Below are positions 1,566-56,200 of a DNA stretch of 64,000 nt, piece after piece. A program made the translations under genes and the position numbers. Below the pieces are notes generated by a model that was not told the DNA's origin, ran no database searches, and was given only the letters and a program-made list of their open reading frames with translations. Origin of the DNA: Octopus vulgaris (lineage: Eukaryota). Every line of letters begins with the position of its first letter. Position 1 is the first letter of the stretch. The DNA is taken from positions 12,462,001 through 12,526,000 of the forward strand of contig OX597830.1 in the NCBI GenBank assembly GCA_951406725.2, given 5' to 3'.

Positions 1566-2275
1566 TTATACTTTTCTACATTGTGCTTTTGTTCAAAAAG
1601 CCATTTGAGATTAAAGTTACAAAGCAAGAAAACGTATTATCTGAAGAACAAAACAAATTCTAAATACTAAGAGTAACTTTATACTTCGATGTTGTTTTAT
1701 GCCTCACTGCTCTGCAAAACTGTTTAAAAGCATAGTGGATAAAGGGAAAATACTCTTGCTGAAACACATTAATATGTTATGGGTTACGCAAGATTTTAAA
1801 ATCATAAATTCAGGCATCCACTGTGCTACGAATACCTCCGGTCAGTAATTTCGCCATTAGTTATTTTGTAAATGTTTTTATTTTTTTGTAAATATTTTGT
1901 TAATTTTTCAAGAGTAGTATTTTTTATCTCCCTTGTATCTGTTCAAGTTCAATAACTGTTGTCGATTAAGTCGACTATACTCTCAAACTGCCTTAGTTTG
2001 GTTCGCAGAATTAGTTAGGATGTAATGTAGTAATTATTGTAAGGCTTATGGATTATGTTAAAGAATTGAAAATCTGCGAAACTGTAAACCAGAATATTCC
2101 TTTGTATATTGAATTTCTTCCTGCAAAATAACTTACAACTGAAATCCTCCAGCCTAAGGAATTTATTAAATTTACTTTAAATTCAAAATAATTCTTTTCT
2201 GTTATATTTAATATTATATTTCATTTTTGTATTTGGTTTGCAAGATTCTTTATGCGAGTTCATGTGTTGAAGCAT

Positions 2276-2494
2276 ATTCTGTTGTGTCTGGGGAGAGTCA
2301 TTTTCTTTTTGTGCTTTATAATATAACACACTCACCGGTAAAATGTCCACTTTTTTTCTTATTTTTATTTTCCTAAAATTTTCGTTGCGTCTTGCAACCT
2401 TTTCAATAAGAAAAAAAAAGTGGAAATTTTACCGGTGAGTGTGTTATATTATAAGGCACTAAAAGAAAATGACTCTCCCCAGACACAACAGAAT
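2276..2494. repeat. Inverted repeat, ~88-bp arms (2276-2363 / 2405-2494), ~41-bp spacer
   Basis: ATTCTGTTGTGTCTGGGGAGAGTCATTTTC...CACTCACCGGTAAAA vs TTTTACCGGTGAGTG...GAAAATGACTCTCCCCAGACACAACAGAAT. Confidence 0.9.
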
Positions 2495-2653
2495 TTAATA
2501 GTATACCTAATTGAAGATTGTTTTTTTTATTTTCTAATGATTGCTGTCAGTTTATTAATAAATTGTCCATGGAGAACAGATCTAAATATTTTCAGTTTAT
2601 TCGTCAATTAAATTTTATTATTAGCCCAAATGAAGAAGCTATTACTGACTTAC

Positions 2654-2800
2654 CTCGTAATCAATTCGAAAGATTCTGACGAGTCCGAGGTCCATAAAAA
2701 TTCGTACACTAGCTTGGACCATATCATCTGTTCGCAATGAAAAGTCATCGAATCGAAGATCTGTCAGCTTGAGATGTTCTGCTTCTGGTATAGAGTCAGC
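2654..2800 (-). CDS. PDE11A: PDE11A-like phosphodiesterase, internal exon (start of catalytic domain): ADSIPEAEHLKLTDLRFDDFSLRTDDMVQASVRIFMDLGLVRIFRIDYE
   Basis: ttttcttttaaag|GCTGAC...TACGAG|gtaagt; 147 nt, phase 0-0; FDDFSL..D.M..A..R.FM.LG.V..F.IDYE matches PDE11A; next exon expected left of the window. Confidence 0.93.
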
Positions 2801-2940
2801 CTTTAAAAGAAAAAAAAAATGATAAACAATGAAATAGGTGTTTAAAGGGAATGTATGTATTCCATTAACAAATAAATATTCATATACACCTGTTTAACAC
2901 CCCATCAGCGTCTGGTGATATATATACACCAATATTATCA

Positions 2941-3194
2941 TTTGCGAAGGCTAGACAGGCATCTCAACCAGCAGGTCTCACTATCCTGGGCTGATGACGG
3001 GTTAAGACCCAGAAACATGCATGTCCTCAGGTGTGAATTCTAGCTGGTGGAGGTGCTTGTCTCCCCTTTGCAAATATAAGGACACAGGAAATGTGTCAAA
3101 GACGACAGGAAGCGTCGATGCTTCCTAGGGCTAAACAGCGGTGGTGTAATTCCCTTACGGGACTGTCACGTTATGTTGGCAGTATACAACCACT
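2941..3194 (+). mobile_element. Non-coding retroposon-like element carrying a hammerhead ribozyme, flanked by 11-bp TSD
   Basis: Direct repeat CAATATTATCA at 2930-2940 and 3195-3205; 3' half recurs at 56087-56200 (minus). Confidence 0.7.
2985..3031 (+). ncRNA. Type I hammerhead ribozyme motif
   Basis: Stem I CCTGGG/CTCAGG; core CTGATGA (2991-2997); stem II GGGT-TAAG-ACCC with C.A closing mismatch; GAAA (3012-3015); palindromic stem III ACATGCATGT; GUC triplet ending 3025. Confidence 0.8.
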
Positions 3195-3289
3195 CAATAT
3201 TATCACTGTTCTTCAGAATTTCCTCCTCTAGCTTAATATAATGTTTCCATCGCGCCTATATTTAAGGTATATTCGGAAAGAGAATAAGG

Positions 3290-3700
3290 GTTTTCTTGCA
3301 TTTGATGTTCAACCTCAGCTGTCGAAATCTGATAGGAAAATGTAGGCGGATATGGATTTCCTTGGGGATGATATTTTTTGGTGAATGATTTGACGAAGAG
3401 GTTAATGTAAAGGCTACTGGTGACTATGTGTAAGGAAAGGAAAAAAATAAGAGAGTCCGGTCGATTTAGCTGGCGACACTATATAAAGAGTTAGTTGTGA
3501 AGAAGAGTAGTTTTATAATAGCAGTAAAAAAGGCAGAGTAATAAAACAGAGATTCTGTGGGTTAAAGGCCGCAGCGTGTTGCTAATCAGCCGTATGATTT
3601 TCTCTTGGTTGCATTAATGGATATTCATAACTTCATCTCTCTTTTCCTTGCCGCTGTTGCGCACGAAGTAGTTCGAGATAATTTCGTTTAGTTTTGAATG
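3290..3700 (-). mobile_element. Degraded CR1/L2-type LINE ORF2 C-terminal fragment
   Basis: Minus-strand reading QEKIIRLISNTLRPLTHRISVLLLCLFYCYY..SSQL resembles the conserved IRLI...L.PL.HRR.V.SLCLFY.YY.G.CSSEL tail. Confidence 0.5.
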
Positions 3701-4856
3701 TGATGTGGTGGAACGTTAAACTGTAGTAAGCAATAACGGATGATCAGAAAAGAGTCAACTCTAGCTTTGCCAAATTCCAATTTATTTCCATGACATTCTG
3801 GATAATTTTACAAAACAGTATCAAATACACCAGTTTTATCAACGGATGCATTTGAATGAAAACACGTTTGATTTGTTAGCGACTAAAATTCTTCTTGGAG
3901 ACGATAAAATTATTCCCTCAGCCCAAATAAGAAAATGTTACTAAGAATGATTTTCTGAATATTGATTAACCTATTAATTTGTGTCCCAGCATAAAGGTTA
4001 GATATACATGAACAGTGAAAGTTAACGATATGAATATGTAGTGAAGGTTAGAATCGAAATCTTACAGCTTTAGTATCTAAGTTCAGATCACTCCTTAGAT
4101 CAGTCGACATGCTCTGAATGCTAACCAATCAACTTATGGGATTGTCACTCCATATTATAGAATATTCTATCATGCTTCAATTGTTCTCGCAAGAAAAAGG
4201 TTTATAAAAGCGAGATCCCGCCAGAATCAGTGAAGAGGTGACAGTAAAGGTTTGAGATGGTTCCCGAGAAAATAGACGAACATATGATTCTTGGTCCTTG
4301 CTTGGTCTGTTTTTAAGAGAATTACTTCGTCTTCAATGCGCTTTTCAACGCAAGTACTATGAACGGAATATTGTTACCGCCCGCAACACAAATTATTAGC
4401 CTACCAGTTTATAATAAAATAAATCAGAAGCGCATTTCAGATGCACAGACAATAAGCCCTTTAAACAGATAAGTTTCCTTGTTTCCTTGTTTGCTGCTCA
4501 GCCCTTCATAAAGTAATCTTCGACTAGAGTAAGCATAGCCTTATTCCTAACCGCCCACGCAAAGCTAATATTTTCTGTTATTAATGCGTAACCTTAATGA
4601 TCTACATTCTCTTGTAGCACATCACTATACATTACAGGCAAGCAATTAGGTAAAAATACGAAAAGTGTAATATACTTCTGGAAAAGTAAGTGTTATTCAA
4701 ACAACGTTGGATTTGGTTTATTTATGGAACAGCTCGCAGTCTATCATCTTACCAATATATCGAAACCCAAATAACTAAAGCTACAAACGCTTCTTGTTCT
4801 TGGTATGAGAAAGTTGTTGATGTCTGGGTTAGATATATATGAACGTACAGATAGAT

Positions 4857-22413: not shown

Positions 22414-22810
22414 CTAGCAGTATCGCCTGGCATTGCTCGGGTTTGTAAGGGAAATAACTATATAAGCATTCTTAGAGATGTAAAGTATAATAGCCATCTC
22501 AATATGGCTAACCACAAAAGGGGGGTGTTACTGTAGCTTTTTACGTTCTGAGATTTAATAATACATTTTTAGAGAGTTACTTCCCTTATATAATAGCAAA
22601 AGAAATGCATTAAAAATGGGAAAAGTGATGGTAATTTTTTTTTTATCGTAGACTCATCGTAGATGCGCGCTAATACCCAGAAGGGCTAGATAGGAATCAC
22701 GACTATAAGATACCCGCTTTTGGTTAAACTGCACCGCAAAATGTGGGAGTAGTTAGGAATCTAAATCGTAGGAGACAGACACCACACAACCTTACTTTTA
22801 TATATATAGA
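22414..22810 (-). mobile_element. Non-autonomous Helitron nested in the Gypsy element
   Basis: Minus strand begins A|TCTATATATA and ends CCCGAGCAATGCCAGGCGATACTGCTAG|T: 5'-TC, subterminal GC hairpin, CTAG-3', A|T target, no TSD. Confidence 0.8.
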
Positions 22811-41625: not shown

Positions 41626-41954
41626 CCTTTAGAGTGATTTAGAAATATTAATATTTCTATTTTTGAAAACCAGTGGATGTGTTCCACTGAATATATATAA
41701 ATAAACCTTCGGACAGTCAGCAGCGACGTCTGCTAGGTTCGGCTACTCCACATTGAAAAGGAGCAAATACCCCGAAACTAGTCTGTGGTTGTTGAACCAG
41801 CAAGCGACAGATGCTGAGCTCCGCTGTTAAAAGGTTGTAATGGACACAGGATTGTGTCACATAGCTAGCTAGAGGCGATGGCCTCTTGGAGCTAATCAAC
41901 GACAGCATTCGTCCTATTTTTCTGGACCGTCATGTTAGCTTAGCGATAACTCAT

Positions 41955-52899: not shown

Positions 52900-54050
52900 T
52901 AGTAAAAGAAACCCTGCTGTTTTGGACATTGCAATAATAAAATGAGACATGAATATTGAAACTGACATCTACTTGAAACCTACAAACGCAAAAGAATATT
53001 TATAATTTCCTTCTTGGCACCCGAAACATTCAAGAACAAATATACCATTTAATTTGGTAAGAAGAATTTGAAAAATTACATCCACTTTAGAAATTCGGCA
53101 TAGACAACTTCAAGAATATTGCTCGAAAAATTGTACTCAGCAACATTAATTGGCAACGGAATAGAACATCCCAAATCGATTGATATTCAAGAATTACAGA
53201 GCTCTGAAGATGCTTCATAGACTCTCTATACTTTGTTTCATGTATCAACACACAATACAGAAGCTTTTAACATCATTCATCCGAATACACCATTTTTAAA
53301 GAGAGACTTTGAACTGAAAATGGTACTCGAAATAGAATAAATAACAAAAAAGTAAAAGAAATTCAAAATAATTTAAGAACTCACAAAACAGCGCCAGACA
53401 ATTCCAGCAGGCAAAAAGGGTGGACATTTTAATCTTAAAGAGGCAACTTGTGAATTTAAAACGGGACTGATATTTATCGTAAGTTATATATACACTTGCA
53501 CGTCCGTAACTGTGGAGGCACATGGCCTAGTGGTTAGAGCAGCGGACTCGCGGTCGAGGGATCGTGGGTTCAAATCTCAGACCGGGCGATGTGTGTGTTT
53601 ATGAGCGAAACACCTAAGCTCCACGCGCCCCCGGCAGGAGATAATGGCGAACTGCTGCTGACTCTTTCGGCACAACCTTCTCTCACTCTTTCCTCCTGCA
53701 TCTAGCAGCTCACCTGCGACGGACCGGTGTCCCGTCCAGGTGGGGAACATATACGCCATGGAAACCGGGAAACCGGTCCTTATGAGCCAGGTATGGCTCG
53801 AGAAGGAACATCCGTAACTGATGTAATGAGTACAACAGGATAAATGGGGTTAATTCTAAAGAGAAGATTAACTTACGTACTCAGTGTTTATTACATACAT
53901 AAGTGAAAATTAGACATATGTCCAGCGTATAAAATATCTAAATATCAAGTTTTTTCATTGTCTGAATATGCTGGAAATATTATTAATAAAACATGGAGGG
54001 ATAAAGAAGGTACATTAATCAATAGAAAGGTAGAAGTTGCTATGCAAAGT
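52900..54050 (+). mobile_element. Penelope-like element remnant (RT C-terminus/thumb and GIY-YIG region), interrupted by a SINE
   Basis: FLDIAIIK..NIETDIYLKPTNAKEYL.FPSWHPKHSRTNIPFNLVRRI; later VSTHN, YTCTS, CNEY..G..G..LKRR. Confidence 0.8.
53513..53810 (+). mobile_element. tRNA-derived SINE (family C head, different tail) with 10-bp TSD
   Basis: TSD TCCGTAACTG at 53503-53512 and 53811-53820; TGGCCTAGTGGTTAGAGCAGCGGACTCGCGGTC...GGTTCAAATCTC. Confidence 0.92.
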
Positions 54051-55920: not shown

Positions 55921-56086
55921 TATATCTCAGAAGGCTAGGCGTTTCAATACCATATACAAGAACCATATCATCATAGAAATCCCGAACGTAAATAATGTCG
56001 CGTTCAAATTAACACTCCTTGTTGCTATATGTAACGACGAAGAGTAATAAATTGAACGTAGAGACATGTACGGTGGTGGGGAGATA

Positions 56087-56200
56087 GAATGGTTATATAC
56101 TGTCAATCTAACACGAACGTGACAGTAGGGGGGTACACCACCGCTGTTTAGCCCTAGGAAGCATCGACGCCTCCTGATGGCTTTGACACATTTTTCCTGC
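56087..56200 (-). mobile_element. Second, 5'-truncated copy of the 2941-3194 element (3' domain only)
   Basis: Shares AATGTGTCAAAG..CAGGA(A/G)GCGTCGATGCTTCCTAGGGCTAAACAGCGGTGGTGTA...ACTGTCACGTT...TTG(G/A)CAGTATA(C/T)AACCA with 3085-3194. Confidence 0.85.

Follow-up and report, generated by a model that had tools for sequence, protein, structure and literature searches.

What is the 254-bp segment lying within a phosphodiesterase gene of Octopus vulgaris, and could it still act as a self-cleaving RNA? In the window (the whole 64,000-nucleotide stretch of contig OX597830.1 that was analysed, to which all positions below refer), two copies of the 11-bp sequence CAATATTATCA, 100% identical, lie on the plus strand at 2930–2940 and 3195–3205 and enclose 2941–3194 exactly, as the first-pass annotation had described. 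Both copies coincide with the ends of the insert as defined by family comparison, and three other organisms have the flank with the left copy at the corresponding position; the repeat is read as a target-site duplication (TSD). The 254 bp is not the length of the unit, for which it had been taken: the family unit measures 354 nt, and 2941–3194 (plus strand) is a 5'-truncated copy of it, without the ~100-nt segment that holds the tail and the putative promoter. Apart from the TSD, the insert contains no terminal repeats and no LTR/PBS/PPT layout, and the retrozyme unit, judged from its sequence, has no ORF. Identity as a tRNA-, 5S- or 7SL-derived SINE was rejected, since Rfam gave no match to such a head over the element and the element ends without poly(A), having neither a small-RNA-derived head nor an A-rich or LINE-like tail. 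The element belongs to the non-LTR retrozymes, a class already described in molluscs. Overall, we hold it highly probable that the window contains a 5'-truncated, TSD-flanked retrozyme copy, likely made by a Penelope-like reverse transcriptase (RT) and likely inert, of a family that likely carries an snRNA-type promoter and serves as a LINE target.

A complete type I hammerhead core, as first proposed, can be read at 2985–3031 (plus strand), with the stems, CUGAUGA, GAAA and GUC all present and a predicted cut 3' of C3025. Stem I is formed by 2985–2990 and 3026–3031 and is followed by CUGAUGA at 2991–2997; stem II is formed by 2999–3002 and 3007–3010, with a C2998·A3011 mismatch at its base and GAAA at 3012–3015; stem III has 3 bp and a UGCA loop within the 10-nt palindrome ACAUGCAUGU, with GUC at 3023–3025. 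The extended stem I makes a rod with a 5' arm at 2941–2990 and a 3' arm at 3026–3074, both recognised from fold and covariation, and a 3' hairpin domain (3081–3194) terminates at the first, AC-rich one of the two fixed 3' ends of the family. The minimum free energy (MFE) of the whole element is −105.5 kcal/mol (z −6.36), a value equalled by none of 200 shuffles, and every arm pair listed in the first-pass annotation is found in this fold. The rod itself is real, but it comprises 41 pairs, with arms of 50 nt each, counted with the hammerhead core held open, rather than ~50 bp. The plus strand folds better than the minus strand (−65.8 vs −54.8). The unconstrained MFE structure misfolds the ribozyme core, the hammerhead fold being less favourable by 2.7 kcal/mol. 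A minimal ribozyme dimer was predicted to co-fold via the palindrome at −34.9 kcal/mol, compared with 2 × −11.8 kcal/mol. The Rfam scan suggested earlier, run over 2000–4500, returned no hammerhead match even at E ≤ 5, and 13 loci scanned at the gathering threshold gave no match. Cleavage of the monomer may be slow, considering the C·A mismatch at the base of stem II and the stem III of 3 bp; only one of nine predicted frog elements was reported to cleave (bioRxiv 2026.07.22.740005). The long stem I had been considered unusual, but it is common to every subfamily folded, and strong self-pairing of the RNA has been described as usual among non-LTR retrozymes (PMC7229834), so it is no oddity.

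The type I core and its three stems are kept in the family, on which Rfam itself is silent. Among 77 core motifs, some of them counted twice in overlapping loci, CUGAUGA was found 56 times, CUGACGA 7, CCGAUGA 5, CCGACGA 3, UUGACAA 3 and UUGACGA 3 times. The covariation that had been named as a check is present: the stems change in step between subfamilies, with two-sided changes in 16 of 19 pairs across 18 sequences, among them all six pairs of stem I; the C3–G8 core pair is CG in 13 sequences, UG in three and UA in two. The paired fraction of 86%, compared with 23–46% in slid controls, is inflated by the choice of these 18 sequences with a script requiring paired stems, and related sequences easily beat shuffles. 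The rod lay outside the selection criteria; a rod of 33–42 bp was present in 7/7 sequences folded (z −3.2 to −8.1, the plus strand always folding better), and the rod consensus of eight sequences showed two-sided changes at 27 of 41 pairs. A homology profile ties several distant subfamilies to that of the window (E 3e-4 to 1e-63), and five loci (L248, L258, L262, L264 and L266) were joined by BLASTN alone, to one another and to profile-positive loci. These covarying subfamilies, with their natural C3–G8 to U3–A8 change, form a ready panel for hammerhead assays.

How is the complete unit built? The 2.8-Gb genome contains 2744 places that are repeat candidates, with long matches 89–96% identical among the 40 scored, and a core pattern of 33–35 nt gave 70 exact genome matches, compared with none for the control. 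Beyond nt 254, copies run through an AT-rich part of ~100 nt and then back to nt 1; a direct dimer with a period of 354 occurs at L170, and dimers of relatives, with periods of 363 and 360, occur at L099 and L131. These tandem copies contain at least two ribozymes, unlike the window copy. Only one same-strand pair was found among the 70 exact matches, and long tandem arrays were not seen. The 354-nt unit has a GC content of 44%, within the retrozyme range of 150–450 bp and GC < 50%, and its circular monomer was predicted to be 67% paired (z −9.6, 60 shuffles). A circle requires two cut sites, and therefore only tandem copies could yield one; the circularisation thought possible for the window copy does not hold, as a truncated piece with one ribozyme gives no unit-length circle. 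The description as a retroposed, non-autonomous retrozyme applies at the level of the family, from copy number, TSDs and covariation, whereas the window copy is only a 5'-truncated piece.

The 5' ends of family copies vary widely, and there are two fixed 3' ends, ~57 nt apart. In 45 loci, those of the 70 exact matches outside earlier sets, the 3' end lies at nt 248–262 in 25, at nt 309–316 in 12 and elsewhere in eight; an inverted piece was found in 14 and a microsatellite end in 14, and a non-simple TSD of at least 8 nt in seven, compared with 0.31 for mismatched flanks. Among the 30 best DNA matches, 21 end at the first site, eight at the second and one elsewhere; seven have an inverted piece, 18 a microsatellite end and nine a TSD (0.64 for mismatched flanks). 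The script behind these TSD counts is rough: of the window copy's own 11-nt TSD it recovered no more than 7 nt, and its nine calls among the 30 best matches include two microsatellites. On this end anatomy, the window copy is read as a 5'-truncated insertion that stopped at the first 3' site. The window also contains a diverged second member at 41630–41950 (plus strand; profile E 8e-11), with a UUGAAAA (U3–A8) core and the upstream motif discussed below, and a family 3' fragment without ribozyme at 56049–56199 (minus strand), found by sequence comparison and profile. A further member or fragment of the retrozyme superfamily lies at 22492–22541 (minus strand).

Literature searches on hammerhead and Penelope elements gave nothing on this 354-nt family among the matches listed. 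The family resembles the metazoan non-LTR retrozymes of mussels (Cervera and de la Pena, 2020, PMC7229834), repeats of 350–390 bp that form circles, in size, GC content and fold. Both have a type I hammerhead, no ORF, a highly self-paired predicted circle, a TSD of more than 4 bp and Penelope-like elements (PLEs) in the same genome (PMC7229834). The octopus family differs in consisting mostly of dispersed single or partial-tandem copies, in its motif resembling a proximal sequence element (PSE) and in being a LINE target. Newt and axolotl satellite 2 retrozymes likewise have a unit of 330–350 bp and a weak palindromic stem III with dimer cleavage there, and one axolotl family has a mismatch at the base of stem II, as does the window copy (PMC7229834). 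However, their sequence and host are different, and no long arrays were seen in the octopus family.

Does the family carry a promoter of its own? The motif ATCAGT occurs at −56 to −60 in five of six U1 and five of six U2 genes fetched from the host genome. A Pol III promoter of the U6 type was considered as well, and none of seven U6 matches, many of them probably pseudogenes, has the motif. In two close retrozyme copies, the equivalent of window position 2966 is preceded, at a distance of 58 nt, by A(C/T)CAGTG or a variant close to it, and the upstream motif was found in 10/10 LINE-bearing relatives tried; the motif measures only 6–7 nt, and the pattern used to find it beside the retrozymes was a loose one. 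It is retained at snRNA spacing in strongly diverged subfamilies. From this spacing, as in U1 and U2, and from the position of a LINE junction near the predicted +1, whole retrozyme units likely carry an snRNA-type promoter, whose predicted start corresponds to ~2966 (plus strand), the LINE target site of family copies probably corresponding to ~2963–2985. Newt satellite 2 reportedly has an snRNA-type promoter. According to a 2020 review, retrozymes seem to lack promoters (PMC7761336); the candidate promoter, set by comparison with host U1 and U2 genes, bears on this view and is directly testable.

The LINE was recognised from two of the first 30 copies, in which another sequence, containing a CCHC ORF, takes the place of the usual upstream part. 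A search with this part alone gave 267 candidates, and 30 loci were fetched. A script placed a hammerhead core 21–32 nt after the AATAAA end in 21 of these, three more were recognised by eye (L053, L055, L061), three run into another LINE and three have other flanks. This ORF1-only element of ~1.7 kb forms tandem arrays; its protein has no database homologue, and its sequence is in the minority, present in 2/45 pattern loci. The 10–25 nt before the junction are duplicated behind the LINE, also around the 5'-truncated copies L035 and L040, as expected for repeated target-primed insertion. The truncated copies L046, L054 and L062 have no left flank, yet end at retrozyme ends, which points to the spread of LINE–retrozyme composites. 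A zf-RVT piece in L184 is unlinked.

An autonomous relative occupies the same site. Its ORF1 is 27% identical and its ORF2 has the order APE-RT-zf-RVT, with numerous intact ORF2s of 1134–1148 aa. Visual inspection of the 20 best ORF2 loci showed 12 with a retrozyme relative as 5' flank, five with another LINE end, two with the U2 5' end and one with unrelated sequence; both U2-flanked loci fall in a U2 cluster. Among six U2 genes fetched, that of L278 is immediately preceded by a LINE 3' end, and L045, an ORF1-only copy, carries a U1-like head. The duplicated segment begins within a few bases of the predicted retrozyme +1, and likewise at the real U2 +1, and the distance from motif to junction is 78–84 nt in 8/9 measurable ORF1-only loci. 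The LINE is of the L1/Tx1 type, the name Tx1 being given provisionally from architecture and behaviour (CCHC ORF1, APE-RT-zf-RVT ORF2, target preference); the homologue search gave no Tx1-named relative. Keno (in U2), Tx1L (in Tx1D) and Tx1-Mar (in Mariner-N4) have the same ORF2 order and a CCHC ORF1, and target-specific Tx1-clade LINEs also insert in tandem into repeated targets, with U2 and other transposons among the targets (PMC4494074; PMC4640811). In contrast to these, the target in octopus is a ribozyme retroelement, and its U2 site lies at the very 5' end. Searches for a retrozyme with a PSE promoter and for LINE insertion into a hammerhead retrozyme found no paper, with Repbase and most subscription journals outside the search; in the literature searched, no earlier description was found of a candidate snRNA-type promoter in retrozymes or of a retrozyme as a LINE target in common with U2. 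The retrozyme offers a new target class for site-specific LINEs, and the intact ORF2s would allow targeting by sequence and by snRNA-type start to be distinguished.

What does the LINE recognise? As a tentative proposal, held at slightly less than even confidence, this is a retrozyme superfamily with its own U1/U2-like promoter, and the Tx1-type LINE homes to snRNA-type starts, parasitising U2 genes and the retrozyme; the target duplication would restore a ribozyme behind the LINE, and the ORF1-only composites would spread by the Penelope-type route of the retrozyme. If true, this would be a three-layer parasitism in which a self-cleaving RNA carries a gag-like gene. A doubtful but serious competitor is that the LINE prefers a short DNA sequence, such as TTCATCG, common by chance to U2 heads and some subfamilies, with the motif being no promoter and transcription occurring by read-through only. 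The U2 +1 and L248-type leaders are indeed both ATCG, the start site is a prediction from sequence, and the review cited above (PMC7761336) states that retrozymes have no promoters. However, the leaders differ much between subfamilies while the distance from motif to junction stays steady, and the motif keeps its snRNA spacing across strong divergence, both of which speak against this reading.

Which enzyme moves the family? A 3' tail that only some copies have, partial tandems, 5' pieces in inverted orientation and AT-rich targets were all found in the family, and such tail, inversion and target features are described for Penelope-like elements (PMC11167929; bioRxiv 2021.04.23.441226). From the two 3' ends, the first in an AC-rich stem, together with the AT-rich targets, partial tandems and inversions, the family was likely mobilised by a Penelope-type route, by analogy with these elements. 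PLE pseudo-LTRs (pLTRs) and their non-autonomous derivatives share with it the two 3' ends, partial tandems, inverted 5' pieces, AT-rich or microsatellite targets and a type I hammerhead, but have a tail of 30–40 nt against ~57 nt in octopus. The unit could even be the pLTR of an autonomous PLE yet to be found, its copies being 5'-truncated ends of that element; every end mark is of the Penelope type, frog retrozymes are tied to PLE pLTRs (bioRxiv 2026.07.22.740005), and the PLE comparison covered the best-scoring candidates only. We nevertheless regard this as improbable. After the tail, copies re-enter their own start and never an RT ORF, PLE ORF matches near family members are decayed pieces at the loci examined, and stems II and III of the ribozyme are full, unlike the minimal PLE type (PMC7761336).

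GIY-YIG and RT searches found no partner Penelope sharing the unit among the best-scoring candidates. Several intact PLE families are present in the genome, and the three abundant ones compared with the unit (781-aa, L098-type and 1312-aa) have no real similarity to it; among the loci examined no RT-GIY-YIG ORF was bounded by it. PLE pieces beside L097 and L094 are decayed neighbours, and the L098 target was rejected as a pLTR, the PLE ORF before its ORF1-only array being broken by another repeat.

Mobilisation by the resident L1/Tx1-type LINE, with the retrozyme as a SINE-like passenger or 3' transduction, is very improbable. Its intact ORF2s are numerous and located in family members, 5'-truncated ORF1-only copies terminate at retrozyme 3' ends, as noted for three loci, and L1-type enzymes also produce 5' inversions. 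The retrozyme copies, however, end without poly(A) or AATAAA, no 3' end was seen that they have in common with the LINE, and their insertion sites are AT-rich or microsatellite DNA rather than the LINE's own target.

With a Penelope-like enzyme as the preferred reading, the cycle may be outlined as follows. In whole or tandem copies, the putative snRNA-type promoter in the preceding unit would direct transcription from a point ~25 nt before the core of the ribozyme. Read-through over two units would provide two hammerheads, which, acting singly or as a stem III dimer, would free a monomer of 354 nt, and this RNA could close to a rod-like circle. Copying by a Penelope-like enzyme would then start at one of the two fixed 3'-tail sites, with priming at AT-rich DNA and often an early stop, to leave copies like that of the window. 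L1/Tx1-type LINEs use the predicted start of family members, and that of U2 genes, as their insertion site, and part of the LINE–retrozyme composites would subsequently move as one piece.

The window copy has one ribozyme, is without the upstream ~100 nt and runs antisense to the gene that hosts it, and is therefore likely inert at its site. Contigs from three other organisms enter the element from both flanks, which dates the insertion before the split of those organisms, and no empty site was seen in the three. One sequencing run, guessed to be RNA, also gave assembled contigs over the element, which cannot show strand, start or circle; the summed depth at 3115–3155 in the contig data, ~10^4-fold over the flank, is not a copy number and was not used as such. 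The host exon at 2654–2800 (minus strand), identified by protein matches, has PDE5 as its best PDB match (E 5e-5). The acceptor indeed lies 140 nt from the retrozyme, which is antisense in the intron upstream of this exon; the exon matches cGMP phosphodiesterases, with the earlier name PDE11 a putative one. Nothing links the window copy to this splice site, and its retention through an effect on phosphodiesterase splicing is hardly credible, as, despite its proximity and its presence in three other organisms, the antisense orientation leaves the host pre-mRNA without the ribozyme, flanks differing by a few percent among those organisms make sharing possible without selection, and intronic copies are expected given thousands of candidates.

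Several further observations were made on neighbouring repeats. Pure tandem arrays of ORF1-only LINEs with a period of ~1.8 kb and several open 443-aa ORFs occur at L093, L095, L096 and L098; at L095 and L098, the TATA box of an unnamed repeat without hammerhead is ~40 nt ahead of the array. In L278 (G000:C23), a U2 array with a period of ~1750 bp, a LINE 3' end replaces the promoter before a U2 copy, and the array may be an amplified LINE–U2 unit. In L186, L098 and L097, some arrayed ORF1-only copies differ from neighbouring copies, by eye, in many A-to-G changes; these might be traces of RNA editing that preceded retroposition. L176–L180 represent a Penelope-like family that is young and whose 781-aa RT-GIY-YIG ORF is overlapped by another ORF upstream; the pattern search found no hammerhead in it. 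A Penelope-like ORF fragment at 52922–53116 of the window is 57% identical to this family. The very uniform L250-type Penelope-like family has 1312-aa ORFs (no Pfam match at E 0.001), a partial tandem ending in (TA)n and, immediately ahead of the ORF, what may be a hammerhead variant. Finally, a MITE-like foldback at window positions 2276–2494, with 82-nt arms that are 96% complementary and 55 nt apart, accounts for the spurious Rfam matches to miRNA families near the element.
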